From a virus (lineage: Duplodnaviria; Caudoviricetes): a DNA stretch of 64,000 bases. The stretch is taken from IMG/VR virus record IMGVR_UViG_3300021133_000001, positions 32,001 through 96,000 of that record; one strand, given 5' to 3'. Below the pieces are notes generated by a model, which saw only the letters and a list, made by a program, of their open reading frames with translations, searched no databases and was not told the origin of the DNA. Below are positions 1,687 to 32,286 of this stretch, in pieces (positions within the stretch are counted from its first letter, which is position 1; each line of letters opens with the position of its first letter). Position numbers and translations under genes: made by a program.

Positions 1687-2163
1687 TTATAATGTAAAAT
1701 ATTTTATGTCTAATTTAGAACAGTTAACCGCCCAGCTATCAGGAAATAAATCTAATGTGGTTTTTTTGTCCCAAAAACTTTGTTTTGAAATTTCACCTAT
1801 TATGTAAATTTTATTTTCCCATATACCTAGAAGTACAAACTTAGTTACCTTAGGGTTGCTGAACGAAAGACTATTTTTTTTAATTAAGAGGTCCAAGTAA
1901 GGAGGCTTACATTTATTATTAAGCTCTCTTGTCTTAACTTGAGCACCATCTAAAAAATCTATACCACCATCTCCTGTACCGCGATCGTAGCATTCGAAGT
2001 TAACTAACTGATTAGTAGCGAAGCCGTATGCGATTTCACCTTTAATACCTGTTATCCAGTTTTCTTTTTTGCCTCTTTTACCCTTTTTTTTCATTTCGAC
2101 AGCAAAATCTTCAGATTGATTACAATCTGCTTCTGTAAGTTGCTTAAGAGGTTTGAGTTTCAT
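1687..2163 (-). CDS. Putative PD-(D/E)XK restriction-endonuclease-fold protein
   Basis: GIKGEIAY...GDGGIDF...QVKT spacing fits an E-D-(Q/E)xK nuclease core. Confidence 0.5.
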   Translation of the reverse strand: MKLKPLKQLTEADCNQSEDFAVEMKKKGKRGKKENWITGIKGEIAYGFATNQLVNFECYDRGTGDGGIDFLDGAQVKTRELNNKCKPPYLDLLIKKNSLSFSNPKVTKFVLLGIWENKIYIIGEISKQSFWDKKTTLDLFPDSWAVNCSKLDIKYFTL

Positions 2164-2165
2164 TA

Positions 2166-2250
2166 TAAAATAAGTGGCCCCGTTTTTATTGCGGTGGTCG
2201 GCCGACCCACAAGTTGTCGTAGTCCTTTGACGTTATCTCCAGTCCAGATA
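2166..2250 (-). ncRNA. Candidate structured RNA or 5' leader, unclassified
   Basis: GC-rich non-coding island directly after a sigma70-type promoter; several hairpins, palindrome GGTCGGCCGACC and a possible GGCC/GGCC pseudoknot. Confidence 0.45.
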
Positions 2251-2255
2251 ATACA

Positions 2256-2287
2256 ATAGTAGGAACTTATCTTATAAAGTCAAGCTT
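2256..2287 (-). promoter_or_regulatory. Sigma70-type early promoter
   Basis: AAGC-TTGACT-16 nt-TACTAT on minus strand. Confidence 0.6.
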
Positions 2288-2402
2288 AATTATAGATAAA
2301 AGGATCTCTTTTACGGATCTCTTCTAACATCTTCTTATGCTTACGCTTCAATTCGCGTTTCTTAAAAAAATCTTTAACGTATTTGTATAATTTAGTAAAC
2401 AT
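2286..2402 (-). CDS. 38-aa basic micropeptide ending RDPFIYN (not in ORF track)
   Basis: Manual translation MFTKLYKYVKDFFKKRELKRKHKKMLEEIRKRDPFIYN; ATG 1 nt after the upstream stop. Confidence 0.65.
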   Translation of the reverse strand: MFTKLYKYVKDFFKKRELKRKHKKMLEEIRKRDPFIYN

Positions 2403-2403
2403 G

Positions 2404-2772
2404 TTATATTTTATGTGATAGGTAATATCCGAGTATATTTACGTTCTTTTCATTGTATGGCAATAGATCTCCGTATACCTTACCATGCTCATCAATCCAA
2501 TCTCTATCAAAACCTTCTTGCTCTAAACGTTTAGCTTCCCCCACTTTAAATACAGCTGCACGTGCAGTATTCTTCTTAAAGTCCGGCCACACAACTACAA
2601 TACCTATATCGGAAGTTATAATAGCAGACGAAGCTTCCTCTGTTTCAGCTATATTAGCTGCTGGAGCAAAGTCTAAATCCACCTCGATATCAAACTTAGA
2701 TTGCTTGACAGCATTGACTATGTCATTAGCATAGTCTTTTACTGCTTTATCTACTTTAAAGTTGTGCTTCAT
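2404..2772 (-). CDS. Hypothetical early protein
   Basis: 122-aa ORF with TTGAAT...TATAAT promoter just before the ATG. Confidence 0.7.
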   Translation of the reverse strand: MKHNFKVDKAVKDYANDIVNAVKQSKFDIEVDLDFAPAANIAETEEASSAIITSDIGIVVVWPDFKKNTARAAVFKVGEAKRLEQEGFDRDWIDEHGKVYGDLLPYNEKNVNILGYYLSHKI

Positions 2773-2807
2773 TACATTATTATAACGTTTAATTATATTT
2801 ATTCAAT

Positions 2808-2835
2808 AAAAAAAGCCTGTATTGCTACAGGCTTT
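2808..2835 (-). terminator. Intrinsic terminator after autotransporter
   Basis: AAAGCCTGTA-GCAA-TACAGGCTTT followed by T-run. Confidence 0.85.
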
Positions 2836-2855
2836 GTTGTAATATGTAAGTTGGA

Positions 2856-5189
2856 TTAGAACTTGAATGTGACGTCAGCTGTTAGGTTAGTATCAGTTAA
2901 CGTTGCTTGCTTTTGTTGACCAGCACCAATAGTACCGGAAATGTACTTTGTTGGAGTAGCTTGCAAGTTAAGCTTGTATGTTGTAATGCCATCAATACCC
3001 TTTGACTTAGTAGGTGTTAAGTAACCACCTTCAGCAATAACTCTGAAAGCATCCCCGAACTGATAGTCAAAGCGTAAGCCACCTTCTGCTGCAGCACGAG
3101 TTACCTTAGCAGCATCAAATGATTGAGCAGTATAAGCATCGCCTGTTTCAGTAATAGCATCAAGTGAGCTTGTTTCGAAACGACCACCAATGAAAGGAGC
3201 GAAACCAAAGTAACTCTTTGAATATAAACGCTCATTTAACCAGATGTCTTTACCATTACCCTTACCGGCATTAGCATAGTTTAGAGCAGCTAATGTATGA
3301 GTATTAGCAAAACGGTCATAAGCAAAACCAAGATCAGACTTTAATACTAATAGATTGTTAAACGTGGTTAAGTTATATAGACCTAAGTGATGCTTTTGTA
3401 ATGTACCAGTAGCTTGATCCCCGTTAATATTAGCATTAACAAAGTCATACTTTATACCGAATAGAACATCGGCTGTAACAAATGATTCAGCACCGATAGT
3501 AAATGTATTGCTTGAAGTTTTATACGTATCAGTCGTATTGCTACTTGTACGTGTATATGTTAAATAAGAGTTCCAACCATCATCTTTATTAGCATTCCAA
3601 GTACCGCCATAGTTGCGATCTAATGGATTAGAATCAACGAGCATATTATAACGACGGCTTGCAGCCTGTAGGTATGAATATTGATCGATACGAGTACCGT
3701 AATTAGCTACAGAACTTGTTACTGCTGTTGTGTTACCAGTAGTAACAATTTTAGCAGTTGATACTGAAGTATTTTCTGTAACTACTGGAGCACTATATGT
3801 TACTAATGTTGGTGTAGTGCCATCAGCATATACTGTAGTAGTAACAGCTGTATTAGTAGTAACATTAGTTACAGGTGTAACTGTTGTAGCAGTAGTTATT
3901 ACTGGTGTAACAGTAGTAACTGTAGTCGTCTTAGCGATGTTTAACACTTTAGTATCAGCTGACTTTGCTTTAGCTTGTGAATAAGCAGTGGTTGAAGCAG
4001 CTGTACCATTTACACTTGCATATGTGGTTGTTGGATTACCAAATACTGTTTGACTAGCAACGTTCTGGGTTGTTGTAGCTGTGCTGTATAAAGCATTAGC
4101 TGTTGTAACAACTGCATTGTTAACTACATTATCTGTAGTTGTTGGTGCACCGTAATATGTACTAATAAGATTACCATTAGCATCTTTAGTAACTGTAACA
4201 GGTGTAACTGTTGTAGCTGTATCTACTGGGGTAGTAGTTGTTGTAGTTGTTAGCTTATAAGTCTTAACTACTGGATTGTTACTTGCATCAACACTATTAG
4301 CAGTTGAATAAGCAATAGTAGCACCAACTACCGCGGTACCGTTTTTAGTAACTGTAGATGTTTGATTGGATGTAGTAGCTACTGTATAAAGAGAAGAGCT
4401 ATTAGCTGTTGAAACTGCAAATGATACATTTGTATTAGATGTTGGTGTACCATATACTGTACTAATAGTATTACCTGTACTATCTGCAATAACAGTCATC
4501 GGCGTCGTCACTGTAGTAGTAGCAACTGGAACTGTTGTAGTTGTTAATACGTTTAAGTTAGTAGTAACAATAGTTGAACCACCACTTGTAGTAGTAACAG
4601 GGGCATATGAATTAGCTAATGTTACGATAGGTGTTCCGTTTGATGTAGTTACAGCTACTGCATTAGTCGTAGTAGCAACTGTAGAAGGTGTTACTGCTGG
4701 TGTGGTAGTTACGACAGCGTTACCTGTTACAGATGTTGTTGCTCCGTTAACAGTTGTCCAGGTTGTCGGTGTAATTGTTGTTACTGTATCAAGATATGTT
4801 GTAGCAATAGTAGCACCATTAGCTGTTGATGTAACAGTGCGAGGTGCTGTTGATGTTGTAGTAACATTACCTGTTGTGACAGTCTGTACTGGTACTGTAC
4901 CATGGTTTACAGTGACAACTGGCGAGCCGTTTGTTGTTACTGAACTATTATCACTATATAAAGTGACTGTAGTAGGGATTGTCGTGGTAGTTGTATTAAC
5001 ATATGTATTATCAATAGAGAAACCGTAAGCGTTAGTTGCAACTACATCTACTGGAGTAGTTGTTACGGTTACTATTGGAGTGCCGTTTGTTGTACTAACA
5101 ACTGTTGGTGAGCCACCGCCCGCCATAAGTGAAGTACTAACTGCAAACGTCAATATAGTTAATGCGATTAGTTTTAGGATTTGTTTCAT
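2856..5189 (-). CDS. Autotransporter (type Va-like) outer-membrane protein with Thr/Val-rich passenger
   Basis: Start re-assigned to MKQILK (ATG 5189): Sec signal peptide, about 480 aa of T/V-rich repeats (SNGTPIVT, TTTTxPV), amphipathic beta-strand C-terminal domain ending VTFKF. Confidence 0.75.
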   Translation of the reverse strand: MKQILKLIALTILTFAVSTSLMAGGGSPTVVSTTNGTPIVTVTTTPVDVVATNAYGFSIDNTYVNTTTTTIPTTVTLYSDNSSVTTNGSPVVTVNHGTVPVQTVTTGNVTTTSTAPRTVTSTANGATIATTYLDTVTTITPTTWTTVNGATTSVTGNAVVTTTPAVTPSTVATTTNAVAVTTSNGTPIVTLANSYAPVTTTSGGSTIVTTNLNVLTTTTVPVATTTVTTPMTVIADSTGNTISTVYGTPTSNTNVSFAVSTANSSSLYTVATTSNQTSTVTKNGTAVVGATIAYSTANSVDASNNPVVKTYKLTTTTTTTPVDTATTVTPVTVTKDANGNLISTYYGAPTTTDNVVNNAVVTTANALYSTATTTQNVASQTVFGNPTTTYASVNGTAASTTAYSQAKAKSADTKVLNIAKTTTVTTVTPVITTATTVTPVTNVTTNTAVTTTVYADGTTPTLVTYSAPVVTENTSVSTAKIVTTGNTTAVTSSVANYGTRIDQYSYLQAASRRYNMLVDSNPLDRNYGGTWNANKDDGWNSYLTYTRTSSNTTDTYKTSSNTFTIGAESFVTADVLFGIKYDFVNANINGDQATGTLQKHHLGLYNLTTFNNLLVLKSDLGFAYDRFANTHTLAALNYANAGKGNGKDIWLNERLYSKSYFGFAPFIGGRFETSSLDAITETGDAYTAQSFDAAKVTRAAAEGGLRFDYQFGDAFRVIAEGGYLTPTKSKGIDGITTYKLNLQATPTKYISGTIGAGQQKQATLTDTNLTADVTFKF

Positions 5190-11946: not shown

Positions 11947-12637
11947 GTTTCTTTTTAAATCGTTCAAATATTTCTTCTGTGCGTCTACCCCCGTTACCTA
12001 CCCCTTTTACTGTATATGTAAAACAAGCTTCCGGGTTTTTAATAATACGGTAACCCGCTTTAGAGATACGCACCCAGTAGTCCCAGTCTTCTATACTGTT
12101 GAGTGTAGGGTCAAAATAACCTACTTCCTTAATACATTCTTTTTTATGTATTACCCCTGAAACGAAGATAAAATTACCTCTAATGAGCTCTTCTGTGCCT
12201 GGAAACGTTTCTGGGTTTGATATACCAAAAGGTACTGCTACTGTACCATCTAAAAAACGGTGACGTACAGCAGAGTAAACCATGTCTGGTTTTTCTCTAT
12301 CTATTACTGCCATTTGCTTTTTAAGATAGTCTGAATCCCATACATCATCACTATCACAGTATGCTATGTATTCAAAATCTAAAGAATGATTTATAATATT
12401 AAGTGCTTGGTTACGCGCTGTACTGACCCCGCCATTTTCTTTAATTATAGTACACATTTTCATTTGATCAAAACCAAGCCCGCTTAAAGAACGTACTAAG
12501 CTGTTCTCAGATTTAGATCCGTCATCAACTATAAATAATGTCCAGTCTTTATACGTCTGTGCAAACACAGCTTGTACAGATTTAACGAGAAGGTCTTTCT
12601 CGTTATAATATGGCATTACTATAGCTACTCTACTCAC
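11918..12637 (-). CDS. GT2 glycosyltransferase
   Basis: IVMPYYN, IVDDGS, NGGVSTARN, YCDSDD, EDWDYW. Confidence 0.92.
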   Translation of the reverse strand: MSRVAIVMPYYNEKDLLVKSVQAVFAQTYKDWTLFIVDDGSKSENSLVRSLSGLGFDQMKMCTIIKENGGVSTARNQALNIINHSLDFEYIAYCDSDDVWDSDYLKKQMAVIDREKPDMVYSAVRHRFLDGTVAVPFGISNPETFPGTEELIRGNFIFVSGVIHKKECIKEVGYFDPTLNSIEDWDYWVRISKAGYRIIKNPEACFTYTVKGVGNGGRRTEEIFERFKKKHVINNNTNS

Positions 12638-13398
12638 TTAAGAATTTCGTTACGTATTTTAGTTGCTGATATTTCTTGTAGTTTCTTATCAAGATCAATC
12701 TGCTCAATCTTATAACCTACATCTCTACCATAAAATATGTTAGTGATATTAGGGACACGTATTATAGTGTATTTACCTTCATAATCAAGCATACCTTTAC
12801 GTATATTAGCTTCTACTTCTTCAAATGAGAAAGGATTCTTTTCATCTGTACCTTGTGTATCTCTAATAGCGATACAAACTTGCCCGACCCGATTAATACC
12901 CTCTACAATTAAAGCTTTGTGGCCATCGTGGAATGGTTGATATCGACCGAGCATAAATGCTGTAGGTGCTTTCGAATTAAACGTAGGAATAAGTTGCTTT
13001 TTAATTTTAGTAGCCCAATACAAAGGCGAACCCTCATCAGTCACCACTACATCTGGATCATCTGGTGGTACAAATAGCTTAGTTGTATCGGCAAAGTCTC
13101 TAACCGGTGTTCTATTTACCCAAACTATAAATGCGTCCCCAAAAGCAGCTCTCGTTTCAGGAATAGGGCAAACAAAATCAGCCACAGCAAATTGCCCAGA
13201 ACGAGTAACGATATCACAAAGCAATCCCATTCTTCGGGCTTGCTCCAATCGATCCTCCACGGAAAACTTAAGATCCTTATTAATTTCTTTGCGTATTTCA
13301 TCAGCGTTAAAATGTACAGCGTTTAGTAACTTTGCTAATTCTAAAGCAAGAGTTGTTTTACCAGCGCCGGGTAATCCCATTATTAAGATCTTCTTCAT
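12634..13398 (-). CDS. Adenylylsulfate-kinase-like domain fused to HIGH-type nucleotidyltransferase
   Basis: GLPGAGKTT P-loop, NADEIR, RLEQARR, DFVCP; C-terminal GRYQPFHDGH and ISATKIR. Confidence 0.8.
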   Translation of the reverse strand: MKKILIMGLPGAGKTTLALELAKLLNAVHFNADEIRKEINKDLKFSVEDRLEQARRMGLLCDIVTRSGQFAVADFVCPIPETRAAFGDAFIVWVNRTPVRDFADTTKLFVPPDDPDVVVTDEGSPLYWATKIKKQLIPTFNSKAPTAFMLGRYQPFHDGHKALIVEGINRVGQVCIAIRDTQGTDEKNPFSFEEVEANIRKGMLDYEGKYTIIRVPNITNIFYGRDVGYKIEQIDLDKKLQEISATKIRNEILK

Positions 13399-13432: not shown

Positions 13433-14074
13433 TTACATTTTATCGAACTTACTTGCTAATCCTGCTATATCAGATTGTTGAAACTTGAATGCTAATGTTG
13501 CACCTGCAGGTCCTAATAATGCTATTAAACCTGATGGTAAATGAGTAGACAACGCACCTAAATGGGGTATAACATATGATTGTATCATTGGTATTGCTGC
13601 TACTGCTGCTGATATAAGAAATGCTTTAGACTTGGCAATGTTAACTTTTTTAATTTGATCTTTACAACGTTCTTTATGAACCTTCATTAATGTTGCGCTA
13701 ATAGCAGCATCTGCCATAATCATTTTGTTATATGCTTCTCGGTCAAAGTAAGCAATCTTAACTGGCGTTTTAGCCTTAACAGTAGCGTTGCGTGGTGCAC
13801 CAGATACTAAAGCTCCTTCTCCAACGAACACTCCCGGTGGCAAGGTTGCAAGAAACACTTCCTTATCTCCTGCTTGTTTAACGACATCAACTTGCCCGGA
13901 TAGAACCACAAACATGAACTCTCCGATGTCGCCCTCTTTAATGATAACCTCACCAGCTGGGTGCTCTTTTGCGGTTGGAAAGGTAGCAATCTTTTTTACA
14001 ATCTTTGGTGGAACACCAGCAAATAAAGCAGATGCTTGAATCTCTTCAAATTTAACTTTTAGTTTCTTAGCCAT
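13433..14074 (-). CDS. Cyclic-nucleotide-binding domain protein with C-terminal hydrophobic helices
   Basis: IIKEGDIGEFMFVVLSGQV and phosphate-binding cassette FVGEGALVSGAPRNATVKA; hydrophobic tail, no CRP helix-turn-helix. Confidence 0.88.
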   Translation of the reverse strand: MAKKLKVKFEEIQASALFAGVPPKIVKKIATFPTAKEHPAGEVIIKEGDIGEFMFVVLSGQVDVVKQAGDKEVFLATLPPGVFVGEGALVSGAPRNATVKAKTPVKIAYFDREAYNKMIMADAAISATLMKVHKERCKDQIKKVNIAKSKAFLISAAVAAIPMIQSYVIPHLGALSTHLPSGLIALLGPAGATLAFKFQQSDIAGLASKFDKM

Positions 14075-14258
14075 TATCTACTGGTACAAGCACTGAGCCC
14101 TCAGAAGTATCAGCTAACACGTACATTTGGTTCTGTTTAGAGCGTAATTTGCTTGCTGGTATATCAGTCAATAAGATTTTATTGTCTGGTTGAAGGACTG
14201 TCATAAAGTCTTTGGAAGGGAAGTATACGGGTAAGGTTTTGACAAATGCTTCGTTCAT
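14067..14258 (-). CDS. Small hypothetical protein co-transcribed with the cNMP protein
   Basis: 63-aa ORF overlapping the cNMP gene start; TAAGTA 7 nt upstream. Confidence 0.65.
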   Translation of the reverse strand: MNEAFVKTLPVYFPSKDFMTVLQPDNKILLTDIPASKLRSKQNQMYVLADTSEGSVLVPVDNG

Positions 14259-14265
14259 ATAGTAT

Positions 14266-14279
14266 TACTTAGCTAAATA
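14266..14279. promoter_or_regulatory. Back-to-back late promoter pair
   Basis: TACTTA-GC-TAAATA gives TAAGTA (minus) and TAAATA (plus) inside a 26-nt divergent gap. Confidence 0.6.
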
Positions 14280-14284
14280 TAGAT

Positions 14285-14743
14285 ATGAAATACCTGCTAT
14301 TATTAGCATTTATGGCAAGTCTTGCCAACGCAACACAACAGACTTTCGCATTTAAGTCATCAGCTTTCCAAACTAACGGGTCATTTTCTGGCTACGAGTT
14401 AACTTTAGAAAACACCGGTTACAATAGACAGCAAACTATTATAGCTACTCAGGAAGCTGCTGCTTCTACAGCTGCTGCTGCTGCACAAAACACCCCTATC
14501 AATCAGTTTATTAGTGGTTTACAGGCACGTATCTATTCACAAATTGCTGCTAATTTAACTTCTCAATTGTTTTCTACTACTGCTACACAAGGTACATTTA
14601 ATTTGCCTTCAGGTGCTACAGTTAACTGGGTAGAGAATAAAGGCATTGCTACTTTACAGATTTACGATCCAACTACTAACACAACAACATCTATACAAAT
14701 ACCTGTAGGTACGTTATTAGCAGCTGGTGCTACTGGAGGTTAA
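14285..14743 (+). CDS. csgF: Curli assembly protein CsgF-like
   Basis: Signal peptide, FAFKSSAF, QFISGLQARIYSQIA, C-terminal IYDPTTNTTTSIQIP; directly upstream of csgG. Confidence 0.78.
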   Translation: MKYLLLLAFMASLANATQQTFAFKSSAFQTNGSFSGYELTLENTGYNRQQTIIATQEAAASTAAAAAQNTPINQFISGLQARIYSQIAANLTSQLFSTTATQGTFNLPSGATVNWVENKGIATLQIYDPTTNTTTSIQIPVGTLLAAGATGG

Positions 14744-14744
14744 T

Positions 14745-15545
14745 ATGAAATACGTTTTACTACTTTGCTTACTTTTAACAGGGTGCCAGACTTACAAAAT
14801 GGCTGTACATCCTTATGAAGCTCAAGATAAACCTGTATTACAGGAGAGTCCTTTAGTTAAGCAGTTAAGAGCACTGCCACCTTTAGATGCACCACAAATG
14901 ACTATTGCTGTGTATAAGTTTAGCGACTTAACCGGACAGCGTAAAACGTCAAACAATTTAGCTCTATTCAGTTCTGCTGTTACCCAGGGTGCTGAGTCAT
15001 ATTTGGTAGAAAGTTTACAGGCAGCAAACAACGGCGGCTATTTTAAGGTATTAGAGCGTACAGGGCTTGATGATATTGTTAAAGAGCGTCAAATGTTAAG
15101 GCAGGCGAAAGAAGACTTTGAAAATACTAAATCACCTGGTACGTTACCTCTATTGTTTGCGGGGGTATTGGTTGAGGGCGGTATCATTGGGTACGATTCA
15201 GACATTATTACAGGGGGTATTGGTGCAAATGTACTCAACATTGGTGCACAAGAACAATACAGCAAAGATGTAGTAACTGTTACGTTACGATTGGTAAGTG
15301 TAAATACTTCGGAAGTTTTATTGAGCGTTACCACCACCAAGACTGTATTTTCCGTTAATATAAATGGCAATTTAATGAGTTGGTACTCAAATGGAACAAA
15401 ATATTCTGAAGGAGAGCTTGGATTCGCAAATAATGAATCCGGTAACGTTGCTGTTAGAGCTGCTATTGATCAAGCAGTTATAGAGCTAATCCATAAGGGT
15501 GAGAAGCAAGGATTGTGGAAGTTTAAGGGTAATAGTAAAAACTAA
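14745..15545 (+). CDS. csgG: Curli secretion channel CsgG (outer-membrane lipoprotein)
   Basis: Start re-assigned to MKYVLL; lipobox LTGC; AVYKFSDLTGQRK, FSSAVTQGA, VLERTGLDDIVKERQ, EGGIIGYD, DVVTVTLRLVSV. Confidence 0.92.
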   Translation: MKYVLLLCLLLTGCQTYKMAVHPYEAQDKPVLQESPLVKQLRALPPLDAPQMTIAVYKFSDLTGQRKTSNNLALFSSAVTQGAESYLVESLQAANNGGYFKVLERTGLDDIVKERQMLRQAKEDFENTKSPGTLPLLFAGVLVEGGIIGYDSDIITGGIGANVLNIGAQEQYSKDVVTVTLRLVSVNTSEVLLSVTTTKTVFSVNINGNLMSWYSNGTKYSEGELGFANNESGNVAVRAAIDQAVIELIHKGEKQGLWKFKGNSKN

Positions 15546-15589
15546 TAATCTTATATAAAAATAGTAAGTATAGACAACACCCAAAGTCT

Positions 15590-16333
15590 ATGAAACACCT
15601 TACTAAAACTATAGCTATATTCCTACTAATCGGATTAGCACGCGCGTTTGGGCAAAACGCTTTATATGTACAACAGATTTCAACTTCAGCCATTGTCAAT
15701 GTCTTACAAGCCGGTGGCGCTAACCGTATTGGTAGCTCTGGTTTGAACTCTATTTTTAACGGTGATACAGCTTTTATAGACATTAAGCAGGTAGGTAATG
15801 GTAATGCTCTTGATTTTAATTTTACAAGTGCATCAAATACTAACTTAAAAATATATAATACCGGAGACAGCAACACTCAAGGTCTATATATTAATGGTGG
15901 TAGTAACACGTTTGATTTAGAGTTTACCGGTTCAAGCAATACTATGGTATTTAATAGTGATGCAAGTAACTCTGGTACAACACAGGCTAATGTCTCCCAC
16001 GGTACCTATACATTTACAGTTGGTGGTAATAGTAATGCGTTTAATATCGGTACTGATACTGGAACATATAACTCTTTAAACTACACAGTTGCTGGTAATA
16101 GTAACGTATTTAACATTTTACAAGACGGAGCAGTAAGTGGTACTTCAGGTCACAATCAAACAGTGATAGTTGATGGTAGTAGCAATAATGTGTATATTAA
16201 TCAGAACGGTACAAGTGCTAATAGCTTATACTACAAGTTAACAGGCTCAAGTACCAATACTTCTATTACACAAGGACCTACAGGTACAACACCACTTAAT
16301 ATCGCTACTACTGCTGGTATCACGCATCCTTAA
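15590..16333 (+). CDS. Curlin-repeat protein (CsgA/CsgB-like)
   Basis: Signal peptide; repeats QVGNGN, TGDSN, GGSN, TGSSN, GGNSN, AGNSN, DGSSNNVYINQNG; N/G/S/T-rich; follows csgFG. Confidence 0.78.
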   Translation: MKHLTKTIAIFLLIGLARAFGQNALYVQQISTSAIVNVLQAGGANRIGSSGLNSIFNGDTAFIDIKQVGNGNALDFNFTSASNTNLKIYNTGDSNTQGLYINGGSNTFDLEFTGSSNTMVFNSDASNSGTTQANVSHGTYTFTVGGNSNAFNIGTDTGTYNSLNYTVAGNSNVFNILQDGAVSGTSGHNQTVIVDGSSNNVYINQNGTSANSLYYKLTGSSTNTSITQGPTGTTPLNIATTAGITHP

Positions 16334-16338
16334 TATGT

Positions 16339-17313
16339 ATGAAAAAGAGTGAAAAGCTTTTATTCACTCTTCTTGTCATTTTAATTTTTTTGCTATGGTG
16401 TAGCCTCGTATATGGTTCAGCTGGACAGGTAACAGAGATAACCGGCCCCACTCAAATTACGAGAGGGTCGGATAAAATTATAGCTGCTCTTAAAACCGGT
16501 ATTGAAAGTAATGATCGGGTAGAGACACTCAACAGTAAGACCGGTATTACCTTTGCGGATGAAACTCACGTTACAATAAGTGAACATAGTAAATTACTGG
16601 TGGACGATTTTGTGTATGATCCTAAAAGTAGTTCAGGTAAAATAGGATTAAAAGCACCTCTCGGTACAGTTAGATACTTTTCTGGTAAAATAGCGCACAA
16701 TAATCATAACAACGTAAATGTGCAAACGCCTACAGCGAGTATAGCTGTTCGTGGTACTGACTTCTCTATGACTGTAGATGAAATGGGTAAGAGTTTAGTT
16801 ATTTTATTACCAACTAAGATAGGCAATCGTTATGTGGTTGGTAAGATTGATGTTACTACAATGGCTGGTACTGTTACTTTAGATAAAGCATTTGAAGGTA
16901 CATTTGTTAGTACTAACTTTACAATGCCCACACCCCCCACTATATTCAGATTAGATGAAGGTGGTGTTAATAATAACCTGTTACTGGACTCTCCTAAATC
17001 AGCTGCTTCAGAAGCTGCTGAAAAAGCTGATAAAGCTGCAGCAGAACAACAGCTACAACAGGCTGCAGCGGTGGCACAGTTATATGCTACTGCTCAGGCT
17101 ATACAAAAAATTGATAGCGCTACATTTGTATTTAAACAAGACGATGCAGACGCTTCTAAAAATAAGCTTAAGAGTAACTTTAAAGGCAATGTAATAAACA
17201 TTATTATACCGAATGGAGAAAACGTTACTGTTAACTATGTTTATCAGGGCGGCAAAGTATCAGCTAAGAATGGTACTGGCACCGGGGTAATAATGAATAT
17301 CGAGCAAAGGTAG
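16339..17313 (+). CDS. FecR-domain periplasmic protein
   Basis: N-terminal hydrophobic segment; GIESNDRVET, ITFADET, LVDDFVYDP, GTVRYFSG, QTPTASIAVRGTDF. Confidence 0.85.
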   Translation: MKKSEKLLFTLLVILIFLLWCSLVYGSAGQVTEITGPTQITRGSDKIIAALKTGIESNDRVETLNSKTGITFADETHVTISEHSKLLVDDFVYDPKSSSGKIGLKAPLGTVRYFSGKIAHNNHNNVNVQTPTASIAVRGTDFSMTVDEMGKSLVILLPTKIGNRYVVGKIDVTTMAGTVTLDKAFEGTFVSTNFTMPTPPTIFRLDEGGVNNNLLLDSPKSAASEAAEKADKAAAEQQLQQAAAVAQLYATAQAIQKIDSATFVFKQDDADASKNKLKSNFKGNVINIIIPNGENVTVNYVYQGGKVSAKNGTGTGVIMNIEQR

Positions 17314-17359
17314 TTATCTTAAACGTTTACTCTTAACGAACAAGTTCTGTAGATAATAG

Positions 17360-17440
17360 TTAATCTCTTGGTAGGTATTTTATTAAAGCTGCTATAATTA
17401 AAGCAACTACTACTAATGCTACTATATAAGAAACAACCAT
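17360..17440 (-). CDS. 26-aa single-pass membrane peptide (not in ORF track)
   Basis: MVVSYIVALVVVALIIAALIKYLPRD; ATG 1 nt after the stop of 17442..17675. Confidence 0.5.
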   Translation of the reverse strand: MVVSYIVALVVVALIIAALIKYLPRD

Positions 17441-17441
17441 A

Positions 17442-17675
17442 TTAGTTTTCTAACGTTTGTTTAAGTTCTTTGGAAAGTTTATCGTACTTTAATGATTGTA
17501 GTTGTACTGTAACACACCAAGTATTCATTGCTATACATAGTACATCAAAAAACAGATCAAAGTAGCTATGTTGTATTATATGATATATACCAAATGCAAT
17601 ATAACTAACTACTATAACCGAACTAACAGCTATAAGCGCATATACAAAATTACGAAACGTAAAGATCATATTCAT
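17442..17675 (-). CDS. Small two-TM membrane protein, antisense insert
   Basis: Two hydrophobic segments; TTGATT...GATAAT promoter-like sequence upstream. Confidence 0.6.
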   Translation of the reverse strand: MNMIFTFRNFVYALIAVSSVIVVSYIAFGIYHIIQHSYFDLFFDVLCIAMNTWCVTVQLQSLKYDKLSKELKQTLEN

Positions 17676-17721
17676 ACAAGTATTATCAGGTATTCTATAT
17701 AAAAATCAACTAAATAAGTTA

Positions 17722-19776
17722 ATGAAGCACACGTATAAAATACTGCTTACTGGGTTAGCTATCCTTGCCAGTCTTGTAGTATTAAGAATAAAGGACCCAT
17801 TCTTTATTGAAACAGCCCGCTTAAAAGGATTAGATTACTATCAAAGGCAACAAAGTAAAGTAAAAAGTAATAATATTGTTGTAGTAACCATAGACGAGGC
17901 GTCGTTAGACAGGTTTGGCCAGTTCCCCTGGTCCAGAGCAGTATTAAGCGAAGGTTTGGAAAAAGCATTTAATAGTGGTGCGCAAGTTGTAGTTATGCCT
18001 ATTCTATTTTCTGAAAAAGATAGATTAGGTGGTGATACTATATTTAATATGACTTTGCAGAAATATCCAGTAATAACTGCACAATCAGCTGCACAAAAAG
18101 GCAAAGGACAGCCTGTACCAAGAGGCTTGGCTACTATAGGTGACGGGTTAGGAGATTGGTTGTTTACGTACCCTGCTGCTATTGGTCCTACTAAAGAAAT
18201 AGGGCAATCATCTGCCGGGGTCGGTATGTTACTAACTACCCCTGAACTTGATGCTGTTACAAGACGTTTACCTTTAGTGGTTAAAGTAAAGGGAGAGGTA
18301 TACCCCACTATACCTTTAGAAGCATTGCGTTTATTTGGTGGTGAAGAGTCTTATCAAGCTAAAGTAGATGAAGCAGGAGTACAAGCTATTAGAGTTAAAG
18401 GTACCCCGCCTATTACTACTGATGCTAATGGTAGAGTGTGGATAAACTTTAAATATACATTTGATTCGGTTTCATTTGCAGATGCTAACTGGTCTATTGT
18501 TAAAGATAAGATAGTATTCATTGCCTTAACCGCAGAAGGCCTAAATAATACTGTAGCTACTCCTGTTGGTATTTCACAAGGATACGAGATATCTGCTCAA
18601 ACCTTGCAAATGTTAATAGATAATAGCAGATTACAAAGACCTTCAACATTCGATCTATATGAACTTACAGGTGGTGTTATACTTGCTATTATTCTTATTG
18701 TTGCTGCTTGTTATTTGGGGTATATCCTAAATGGTATACTAATCACTACATTTTTATGTGTACCTTATTTTATTGGATCTCGTTTATTTGTTAATCACGG
18801 ATATCTTACGGATTATACCTGGCCTACCTTAGCGGTATTATTACCCTGGGTAGGTGCTATATTCTTTAGATTTGTAATGGAGTTTAAGTTAAAGCAGCAG
18901 ATCAAGAAGCAATTTGGTACTTATTTAAGTGCAGCATTAGTAGAGAAACTACAAAAAAATCCAGGTTTGTTAAAGCTTGGTGGAGATGAAAGAGAGTTAT
19001 CTATTATGTTTACTGATGTAAGAGGCTTCACAACTATATCAGAGCATTATGGTAAAGACGTACAAGGTCTGACAATGATAATGAATCGTTATATGACTGC
19101 TATGACTCAAGCCATATTAGATAACGACGGTACCCTCGACAAATATATTGGTGACGCACAAATGGCTTTCTGGAACGCTCCTTTAGATGATCCAGATCAT
19201 GCTCGTAATGCTGTTAAGACTGCTATGCAAATGCTAAAGAGACTTGACACGTTTAATGAAGAAATAACTAAAGAAGGTATACCAGCATTTGGTATGGGTT
19301 TAGGTATTAATACAGCTTCTGTAGTAGTAGGTAATATGGGTAGTACTCAGCGATTTGACTATACTTGCTTAGGTGATGGTGTTAATTTGGCTTCTCGTCT
19401 AGAAGGACAATCAAAACCATACGGGGTACGTATTATTGTTGGACCAGTAACACACGAGTACGTAAAGAATGACTACCAATGTTTTGAGCTTGATTGTATA
19501 GCAGTTAAGGGTAAAAAAGAAGGTGTTAGAATTTACACTATATTAGAAAATAGCTTAATCGAGATGGTTACAGAAGTAAACAGAATGCATGAAGCATTCT
19601 TAATAGATTATAGAACTCAAAAATGGGATGAAGCTGTACAACTAGCTACAGCATTAAAGAAGTATAATCCTGAACTTAAAAAATACTACGAGGCTATGCT
19701 AGAGAGAATAAAAGAGCTCCAAGGAGCTAACCTTGGAGCTGATTGGGACGGAGTTTATAGAGCTACGTCGAAATAA
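17722..19776 (+). CDS. CHASE2-domain membrane receptor adenylate cyclase (class III)
   Basis: CHASE2 motifs IDEASL..GQFPWSR, PELDAVTRRLPL, TDANGRVWINF; 3 TM helices; cyclase FTDVRGFT, DKYIGDA, GINTASVVVGNMGS, DYTCLGDGVNLASRLEG. Confidence 0.93.
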   Translation: MKHTYKILLTGLAILASLVVLRIKDPFFIETARLKGLDYYQRQQSKVKSNNIVVVTIDEASLDRFGQFPWSRAVLSEGLEKAFNSGAQVVVMPILFSEKDRLGGDTIFNMTLQKYPVITAQSAAQKGKGQPVPRGLATIGDGLGDWLFTYPAAIGPTKEIGQSSAGVGMLLTTPELDAVTRRLPLVVKVKGEVYPTIPLEALRLFGGEESYQAKVDEAGVQAIRVKGTPPITTDANGRVWINFKYTFDSVSFADANWSIVKDKIVFIALTAEGLNNTVATPVGISQGYEISAQTLQMLIDNSRLQRPSTFDLYELTGGVILAIILIVAACYLGYILNGILITTFLCVPYFIGSRLFVNHGYLTDYTWPTLAVLLPWVGAIFFRFVMEFKLKQQIKKQFGTYLSAALVEKLQKNPGLLKLGGDERELSIMFTDVRGFTTISEHYGKDVQGLTMIMNRYMTAMTQAILDNDGTLDKYIGDAQMAFWNAPLDDPDHARNAVKTAMQMLKRLDTFNEEITKEGIPAFGMGLGINTASVVVGNMGSTQRFDYTCLGDGVNLASRLEGQSKPYGVRIIVGPVTHEYVKNDYQCFELDCIAVKGKKEGVRIYTILENSLIEMVTEVNRMHEAFLIDYRTQKWDEAVQLATALKKYNPELKKYYEAMLERIKELQGANLGADWDGVYRATSK

Positions 19777-19777
19777 C

Positions 19778-20476
19778 TTAGTAACCTAAGAGATACTTGC
19801 GGCGCTTTGTTGGGCCTTCTACTTTATAACCTACTGGGGTTAATGTGACAGCTTGTGCGCCGCCACCGTTACTACCTGTAGCAGGTACTGTAAATTCAAA
19901 GCAAGAATAATCATGCTTTTGTAAATACATTTTGTGAGCTACTGGAGACGAAAATGTTACTGTAGCAGAACCTGGGTTAGCATAACCTGAACCTGTGTTA
20001 GTGATTTGTACGCCAATAATGTTACCGTTACCAACAATAGGCACACCAGTTGCGCGATTTGAACCGGATTGTGGAGCTGAGAAAGTACAAGTTACTGCAC
20101 CATCATTACCTGGACCCCAATAACCTAATCCACCATTCGTGATTACAACACCGCTAATGCTTTGTGTATATGTACCACCCGCTTGATAGGATACTGTACC
20201 GGTTGCTGTAGTGCATTGATAAGCACCGTCAACAAATATGGAACCTGTACCAGATGAAAGACCTTCTACGCCGGTATTATTAGCCGTATTCACGTAATTT
20301 AAAGTAAAGTTTGCTTGTGCACTACCTGTACCAGATAAACTGTTAGAGACACTAGGAATTACGTTAAAAAGTATAGCAGCTCTGTTATCGCTGATATTGC
20401 AATCAATACCTTGATATGTAGTAGGATCGTTGCCAACTTGATTTTGTGTTACTTGAGAATTGAAGTAGGTAGCCAT
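19778..20476 (-). CDS. Putative virion structural protein
   Basis: ITNGGLGY / ITNTGSGY repeats typical of T4-like tail/baseplate proteins; TAAATA upstream. Confidence 0.6.
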   Translation of the reverse strand: MATYFNSQVTQNQVGNDPTTYQGIDCNISDNRAAILFNVIPSVSNSLSGTGSAQANFTLNYVNTANNTGVEGLSSGTGSIFVDGAYQCTTATGTVSYQAGGTYTQSISGVVITNGGLGYWGPGNDGAVTCTFSAPQSGSNRATGVPIVGNGNIIGVQITNTGSGYANPGSATVTFSSPVAHKMYLQKHDYSCFEFTVPATGSNGGGAQAVTLTPVGYKVEGPTKRRKYLLGY

Positions 20477-20503
20477 ATATGTTATTATTTAGTAATTTTT
20501 GAC

Positions 20504-20803
20504 TCAAAAACCTGTATCGTTATATTTACCAAGCATATTACCCATAGGTTCGTCTTCTTCTTTAGCTACTTGTGTCTGTTGGTTTAATAAATTAGCTGCA
20601 GCTTGTTTAATATTGCTATCTGTAGAATTAACTAATGAAAGTAGTAAAGCGTTAAAAGCAGTAGATAAATCCTTACTCTCCAAGGGGTTATTGCCTTGTG
20701 CGACTATCAGTTCTTTTACTTTTGCAAGTAAACTAGCAGTGTCATTACTTTCTTTAACAAGAATAGAGTGATATTTTTCAATAAGGAGTTTATCTGAACG
20801 CAT
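20504..20803 (-). CDS. Hypothetical late protein, possibly head-packaged
   Basis: TAAGTA just upstream; N-terminus MRSDKLLIEKY..LVKE resembles cleaved head-protein leaders (inference). Confidence 0.6.
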   Translation of the reverse strand: MRSDKLLIEKYHSILVKESNDTASLLAKVKELIVAQGNNPLESKDLSTAFNALLLSLVNSTDSNIKQAAANLLNQQTQVAKEEDEPMGNMLGKYNDTGF

Positions 20804-31985: not shown

Positions 31986-32286
31986 ATTGTATAGGTGTTT
32001 GTGGTCTTGCCAGTCTACGCTCTTGACTCGGATCATTAGGTTGAGCAAAGTAATGCAAACATTCCTTATCTAACTTTATTGCATTTTTCTTATTAAAGTC
32101 TTGCAGTTCTTTATCAGTTGGATTACTCTTGTTGAGCTTAACACGATTAGGTACCTTTTTACCTATCATATTATGGAAAGTCTTTGCAGTTTCAACAATA
32201 CGTTTAATCTTCCTGCGGTATATAGGTGAGCCATATAACTTCAGAACTTCAGGGTGTAGTTTAGATGGATTGTTTTTAGTTGCCAT
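31984..32286 (-). CDS. Basic hypothetical protein
   Basis: 100 aa; TTGATA-16-TATAAT upstream. Confidence 0.7.
   Translation of the reverse strand: MATKNNPSKLHPEVLKLYGSPIYRRKIKRIVETAKTFHNMIGKKVPNRVKLNKSNPTDKELQDFNKKNAIKLDKECLHYFAQPNDPSQERRLARPQTPIQ

Follow-up and report, generated by a model that had tools for sequence, protein, structure and literature searches.

A curli, FecR and CHASE2 adenylate cyclase module in a large T4-like phage, with a divergently encoded cyclic-nucleotide-binding protein

We analysed a 64,000-nucleotide stretch of viral DNA (the window), which spans positions 32,001 to 96,000 of the IMG/VR virus record IMGVR_UViG_3300021133_000001 (Duplodnaviria; Caudoviricetes), a 140 kb contig with a completeness of 44% according to CheckV. 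Genes for curli export (csgF, csgG and a curlin-repeat gene), for a FecR-domain protein and for a receptor adenylate cyclase with a CHASE2 domain follow one another on the plus strand of the window, and are faced by a divergent unit that encodes a cyclic-nucleotide (cNMP)-binding protein (Table 1). An initial annotation of this DNA had proposed that these six genes form a trans-envelope signalling system. All six were found intact at the positions listed, with domain calls supported by Pfam or, in the case of the curlin, by a family profile, and the divergent unit does encode a cNMP-binding protein. The plus-strand block lies within a minus-strand region, as had been claimed, and the GC skew changes sign at the block. 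The lengths of all five plus-strand products are typical for their orthologues, none being broken.

Table 1. Coordinates of the genes and sequence elements of the cassette in the window.
Feature	Position	Strand	Source or match
213-aa cyclic-nucleotide-binding protein, cyclic-nucleotide-binding (CNB) domain ~11-135	13433..14074	-	Pfam cNMP_binding 4.6e-21
63-aa open reading frame (ORF), first gene of divergent unit, overlaps cNMP gene start by 8 nt	14067..14258	-	ORF list
Divergent spacer, 26 nt, back-to-back CTAAGTA (-) and CTAAATA (+)	14259..14284	.	Motif scan
CsgF homologue with Sec signal peptide	14285..14743	+	Pfam CsgF 5.3e-9
CsgG outer-membrane lipoprotein, lipobox LLTGC	14745..15545 (possible GTG start 14727)	+	Pfam 3.5e-48
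Secreted curlin-repeat protein, 247 aa, Asn/Gly/Thr-rich, signal peptide, ~8 Q/N-x-G-x-x-N units	15590..16333	+	Family profile
FecR-domain periplasmic protein	16339..17313	+	Pfam FecR 1.9e-9
77-aa ORF with two transmembrane (TM) segments (17442-17675) and 26-aa single-TM mini-ORF (17363-17440)	17363..17675	-	ORF list, hydropathy
CTAAATA, 12 nt before cyclase ATG	17710..17716	+	Motif scan
Receptor adenylate cyclase, 684 aa	17722..19776	+	Pfam CHASE2 4.4e-41 (residues 16-324), Guanylate_cyc 8.4e-20

The CsgF assignment comes from the Pfam profile, a phmmer search of the PDB having returned no CsgF match. On inspection, its mature N-terminus, TFAFKSSAF, resembles the corresponding segment of E. 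coli CsgF, TFQFRNPNF. CsgG matched the E. coli CsgG structures at 7e-39 (phmmer). In its constriction loop the E. coli residue F56 is retained as Phe, while the equivalents of Y51 and N55 are replaced by Ser and Leu respectively, so that the pore may have other properties than that of E. coli. The curlin-repeat ORF of the window alone gave no Pfam match; the repeated units are, however, evident in an alignment of 14 phage orthologues, half of which (7/14) reach Curlin_rpt with a best E-value of 6e-7, and a profile built from the 14 finds the curlin-repeat structure 8c50 at 1.1e-15 and, weakly, E. coli CsgA. As it is the profile of orthologues that matches, rather than the window protein by itself, the curlin identity is supported at the family level, and the degenerate repeats are nearer to 8c50 than to E. 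coli CsgA (8enq). The cassette thus resembles the curli system of E. coli (CsgG/CsgF/CsgA/CsgB; PDB 6l7a, 3x2r) in its CsgG lipoprotein, its CsgF-family member and its secreted curlin-repeat protein, but differs from it in two of the three constriction residues and in having no CsgE, CsgC or CsgD, for none of which was there a Pfam match in any ORF between 13433 and 20476.

In known systems, a protein with the FecR/PupR fold touches an outer-membrane transducer and relays the signal to a partner in the inner membrane. The FecR-domain protein of the window consists of an N-terminal signal/anchor helix (from residue 7), a FecR/PupR-type beta domain (residues 29-200; modelled confidently by AlphaFold) and, after a helix, a small beta domain at the C-terminus. 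Foldseek aligned ~148 residues of the model with the anti-sigma periplasmic domains 4m0h (Bacteroides-type) and PupR 6ovk, at a probability of 1.0 and a TM-score of ~0.5. In contrast to the FecR/PupR anti-sigma factors, with which it shares the fold of the periplasmic domain, the phage protein has no cytoplasmic anti-sigma domain, and the cassette contains no gene for an extracytoplasmic function (ECF) sigma factor or a TonB-dependent transducer. A second parallel is found in the BiofilmReg operon of Burkholderia and relatives, where FecR-domain genes lie beside those for CHASE2 histidine kinases (PMC5192318). In both cases a periplasmic FecR-domain protein is encoded beside a CHASE2 membrane sensor, but the phage output is a cyclase instead of a histidine kinase, and the phage FecR protein lacks the LysM domain.

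In 48 of 61 related loci the FecR stop codon overlaps the cyclase start by 4 nt, and by this overlap the two genes are translationally coupled in most relatives, which fits products that are needed in a fixed ratio. The window is an exception, its FecR and cyclase genes being parted by a 408-nt insertion, where the two small TM-containing ORFs of Table 1 are found. The CTAAATA ahead of the cyclase would probably be its own late promoter, used since the operon was split. The 85 nt around the 26-aa mini-ORF are 90.6% identical to L004, a related phage locus in which the flanks are not alignable.

The cyclase is predicted to begin with a TM helix (residues 5-23), followed by the periplasmic CHASE2 domain (~24-317), three further TM segments (318-388), a catalytic domain of class IIIb and a helical tail of 75 aa at the C-terminus; the TM segments were taken from hydropathy peaks at 5-23, 318-336 and 370-388, and the segment 338-357 was read from the sequence. 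Residues D432, D478, K474, T548, N555 and R559 form the catalytic hexad, which is invariant among 12 orthologues (48-85% identity, with an almost invariant catalytic domain) and aligns with that of the closest solved domains, those of the adenylate cyclases CyaB (3r5g) and CyaC (1wc0). Judged by these residues the enzyme looks active, and also ATP-specific, because the K/T pair is typical of ATP-specific enzymes. A further analogy is with S. meliloti, in which the CHASE2 class III cyclases CyaD1, CyaD2 and CyaK produce cyclic AMP (cAMP) that is read by a protein with a CNB domain, Clr, and in which CyaD1 becomes constitutive once CHASE2 is deleted (PMC5498481).

The DNA of the cyclase and of the gene that follows it (232 aa, 19778-20476) is 92% identical between the window (17723-20627) and L004 (10002-12915), while the other regions common to the two reach 72-77%; this points to a recent exchange of the segment. 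A hypervariable csg block was considered as an alternative and rejected, 72-77% being the baseline from which the cyclase and the next gene depart by being unusually alike.

The CNB domain of the cNMP-binding protein is canonical, with a predicted local distance difference test (pLDDT) value of ~90 in the model and Foldseek matches to the CNB domains of PKG, CRP and MloK1, and the phosphate-binding cassette GEGALVS..PRNA is invariant in the family. The last 65 residues contain two hydrophobic stretches of ~14 residues each, with a Kyte-Doolittle (KD) peak of 1.7, and this character is conserved. The protein thus shares only its CNB part with CRP/FNR regulators, its C-terminus being a hydrophobic helical region with no helix-turn-helix (HTH); the same absence of an HTH sets it apart from S. 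meliloti Clr as a reader of cAMP. A role as a membrane effector is plausible. The family comprises 79 clusters at 90% identity, all of 213-220 aa, and its ESM Atlas cluster is 97% viral. The 63-aa ORF that precedes the gene gave no Pfam or PADLOC match; it is 94% identical in L004, and an ORF of 68-70 aa occupies the equivalent position in L004 and L171.

A cyclase and a cNMP-binding protein side by side could also be a borrowed Pycsar-like pair with a membrane-disrupting effector, serving competitor exclusion or triggered cell death. A CNB domain followed by a hydrophobic C-terminus does recall the PycTM effectors that Tal et al. reportedly described in 2021, and the PADLOC models PycC and PycTIR match the cyclase and CNB domains. 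These matches (28-86 bits) do not, however, go beyond the level of domains, the PycTM models gave no match, and the pairing of a soluble pyrimidine cyclase with a cNMP-activated effector that defines Pycsar (PycC with PycTM or PycTIR) was not found, the cyclase being a CHASE2 receptor with a purine-type K/T pair. Moreover, the cyclase is always tied to the csg and FecR genes and not to the cNMP gene. We consider such a pair the least probable of the accounts weighed here.

The cNMP gene is, in turn, genetically tied to the block in the window clade. In eight lineages (the window, L004, L156, L027, L167, L169, L170 and L171) it faces csgF head-to-head; among these the cNMP protein is 42-75% identical, and the genes on its far side vary. 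The spacer between csgF and the cNMP unit measures 23-70 nt in these lineages, and in seven of the eight it holds a palindrome of two outward-facing TATAA(A/G)TA or CTAA(A/G)TA motifs, which in L167, L170, L156, L171, L027 and L004 takes forms such as TACTTATAAGTA or TATTTATAAATA. A shared palindromic element argues for co-expression of csgF and the cNMP gene from one bidirectional element. Beyond the head-to-head lineages, two more genomes, one of them complete at 297 kb and the other a contig, carry the cNMP gene at a distance of ~15 kb from the module. The cNMP-binding protein with its shared palindromic promoter is a lineage-specific addition to the module and not a constant part of it.

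Other neighbours of the cNMP gene were noted. On its far side the window encodes (12634-13398, minus strand) a 254-aa protein in which an APS-kinase-like P-loop domain is fused to a cytidylyltransferase/NMNAT-like domain (phrog_10255, 'kinase'). In several related phages a homologue adjoins the cNMP gene, and once, in L168, it stands beside a sulfotransferase; this neighbour hints at a phosphoadenosine phosphosulfate (PAPS) or sulfation function. In L168, too, a TPS-domain protein (660 aa) and a protein of the ADP-ribosyltransferase exotoxin family (229 aa) are encoded at 2081-5087, a few kb upstream of the cNMP gene. In L173 (ENA ERZ1744925 NODE_40; 4x coverage) a cNMP homologue and a kinase fragment are joined to actinobacterial housekeeping genes (rplS, rimM, trmD, DUF3071 and DUF4193); this contig was set aside, since it is probably a low-coverage assembly chimera.

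The motifs in the spacer bear on when the module would be expressed. The initial annotation had placed TAARTA late-type motifs before csgF, the curlin gene and the cyclase gene, and CTAAATA is indeed found 12 nt before the ATG of csgF as well as that of the cyclase, whereas TAAGTA, ahead of the curlin gene, matches weakly. CTAAATA is rarer than expected in the window (16 copies against ~30), and of the 33 copies in the 140 kb contig nine stand in the sense orientation no more than 40 nt ahead of a gene start, against ~2% expected by position. The genes so preceded include csgF, the cyclase gene, the gene after the cyclase and that of a 1198-aa tail fibre. CTAAATA is thus a candidate late-promoter core for this phage group, and by analogy with T4-like phages it may act as a late promoter of the T4 type. 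A scan of the region for sigma-70 promoters gave matches at chance level.

The initial annotation knew of no description of the full circuit in a phage. The csgF-csgG-curlin-FecR-cyclase core has in fact been published (PMC9599517), and GenBank entries for cultured phages carry its annotation. CsgF, CsgG, CsgA/B, FecR and adenylate cyclase (AC) were presented by Wittmers et al. (2022; PMC9599517) as a region that is conserved and co-selected in both myo- and podo-pelagiphages, with FecR and AC standing outside bacterial curli operons, while Zaragoza-Solas (2020; PMC7029224) and Buchholz (2022; PMC9004378) dealt with the curli genes only and left the cyclase and FecR unmentioned. In the papers on the pelagiphage curli module that we searched, no mention was found of a cNMP-binding protein, or of CHASE2, alongside the module. 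Among cultured phages, tblastn gave matches at 40-42% identity to the cyclase and at 43-46% to CsgG, both in Methylophilales phage Melnitz (MZ577097) and Pelagibacter phage HTVC008M (KC465899), whose annotated order is csgF, csgG, a curlin-associated repeat gene, FecR, a second curlin-repeat gene and an adenylate/guanylate cyclase.

The cassette of the window thus has the same genes in the same order as the pelagiphage module (PMC9599517; Melnitz, HTVC008M), with identities of 40-46% for CsgG, FecR and the cyclase and ~30% for CsgF, and in both cases the genes stand in a variable island beside carbamoyltransferase and glycosyltransferase genes. The window differs in having a single curlin-repeat gene, in its 408-nt insertion between FecR and the cyclase, and in the CTAAATA that the cyclase has to itself. 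Upstream it has no same-strand genes for small membrane proteins, nor the small 'histidine kinase' genes that directly precede the podovirus versions on the same strand (PMC9599517), but the divergent unit of the 63-aa ORF and the cNMP gene; in many relatives a 94-aa TM protein is encoded directly upstream of the csgF position. The window phage is also much larger than the pelagiphages, its relatives reaching 297 kb.

Conservation of the module was then assessed more widely. At least 585 viral contigs in an IMG/VR scan encode relatives of the cyclase, and synteny was analysed in the best 80 of these, of which 44 have at least 4 kb of sequence upstream of the cyclase. The order csgF-csgG-curlin-FecR-cyclase is kept on the same strand in 41 of the 44 loci, and the other three lack only a detectable CsgF. 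The co-occurrence of six genes that the initial annotation had envisaged thus stands for the five-gene core, but the cNMP gene accompanies it in some lineages only. No bacterial source of the whole cassette was found among 68 bacterial loci with cyclase relatives. Three loci binned in Bacteroidetes/Chitinophagales metagenome-assembled genomes (MAGs), L084, L085 and L086, carry the module or the cyclase (49-88% cyclase identity); these look like phage contigs binned into Bacteroidetes MAGs, either by mis-binning or as a hint at the host phylum.

For Melnitz it has been proposed, from models and synteny, that the CsgG/CsgF pore has been converted into a gated channel of the outer membrane, pinholin or secretin-like, that helps to time lysis (PMC9004378), and cAMP could then be one gating input. 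The altered constriction of the window CsgG, in which only F56 is kept, and the late-promoter-like motifs would suit such a channel. An outer-membrane pore does not, however, depolarise the inner membrane, no lysis genes adjoin the cassette in the window, and the proposal left the conserved curlin-repeat substrate, FecR and the cyclase unconsidered. We regard this explanation as very unlikely.

Another reading is that the module is a fibre-secretion device, with which curlin coats or aggregates infected cells ('sibling capture', or a superinfection shield), FecR and the cyclase tune expression via host cAMP-CRP, and the cNMP gene lies beside them in a hypervariable island with no relation to their function. 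Curli export needs CsgG, CsgF and a curlin-repeat subunit, all of which are present, marine phages carry the module without a cNMP gene, the surrounding island is variable and encodes glycosyltransferases and a carbamoyltransferase, and the curli genes were read in this way in PMC7029224 and PMC9599517. Set against this, Melnitz infections proceeded without visible clumping in the work of Buchholz et al. (PMC9004378), the cassette lacks CsgE and CsgD, and a late-expressed module has little time for self-regulation via host CRP. In addition, the head-to-head cNMP gene and the shared palindrome are still present where protein identity has fallen to 42%, even as the far-side genes change. A fibre device of this kind is possible, but we think it doubtful.

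As to the source, the initial annotation had allowed that the contig might prove bacterial or chimeric. There was no sign of either, and phage-type genes of the window encode long collagen-like tail fibres, a baseplate-wedge/long-tail-fibre C-terminus and a Hoc-like domain, on a record that IMG/VR classes as a virus. A search of the 140 kb fragment for the Gp23 capsid family gave no match, but the controls likewise gave none. Around the cassette lie genes for glycosyltransferases, for a Nol-like carbamoyltransferase and a radical-SAM enzyme, and for a kinase of a family that is known in phages, and this neighbourhood fits the description of the pelagimyophage variable island (PMC7029224). The source is a large uncultured T4-like phage, in which the cassette lies within a cell-surface-modification island.

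We favour, with moderate confidence, the reading of the locus as a phage curli (type VIII secretion), FecR and cyclase module that works in cAMP signalling with a reader supplied by the phage. Late in infection, the cell would gain a CsgG/CsgF outer-membrane pore and export the curlin-repeat protein. The periplasmic FecR/PupR-fold protein, normally present at a fixed ratio to the cyclase, would modulate the periplasmic CHASE2 domain, upon which the cytoplasmic class IIIb domain would produce cAMP. In this lineage the virus-specific cNMP protein, expressed from the other face of the palindromic promoter, would be the phage's own cAMP receptor, and may act, perhaps at the membrane, by way of its hydrophobic C-terminal hairpin. 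Lysis timing, exclusion and aggregation are candidate outputs of the system. A trans-envelope cAMP relay of this kind is reasonable on the grounds of analogy and gene coupling. A more specific version, in which a very large T4-like phage clade has closed the circuit from CsgG/CsgF/curlin through FecR/CHASE2 and cAMP to a CNB-hairpin protein that, holin- or antiholin-like at the inner membrane, sets late lysis timing or superinfection exclusion, we consider unlikely.

Several points weigh against the signalling reading. The Arg-Asn-Ala of the binding cassette is unusual, so that the ligand of the cNMP protein is not certain. The two hydrophobic stretches are short and have pLDDT values below 50, and the cNMP protein, which the initial annotation had called a membrane effector, is a candidate membrane protein. 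If CTAAATA is a late promoter of the T4 type, its distance of 5-6 nt from the ATG would leave the mRNAs nearly leaderless. Neither Melnitz nor HTVC008M, both with complete genomes, has the cNMP gene, which is missing as well from two module-bearing relatives that are 78-84% complete, so the module works without the cNMP protein; conversely, in at least three contigs (L153/L172, L168) the module was not found within 7-10 kb of the cNMP gene. The eight head-to-head lineages may retain one ancestral arrangement instead of representing eight independent events. Finally, the closest bacterial full-length CHASE2 cyclases found, in MAGs of Alphaproteobacteria and Desulfovibrionaceae (29-40% identity), stand apart from any csg genes and have no FecR gene next to them, FecR matches lying elsewhere; this absence of csg and FecR neighbours agrees, on the other hand, with the published view that the module was assembled in viruses.

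The locus extends the curli, FecR and cyclase module to large T4-like phages, beyond the marine phages of SAR11 and OM43. If the phage cAMP receptor is wired to the module by the shared promoter, then cAMP may be read by the phage itself and not by the CRP of the host. The cNMP-binding protein would thus be a small, testable output protein, which makes the signalling model itself testable.

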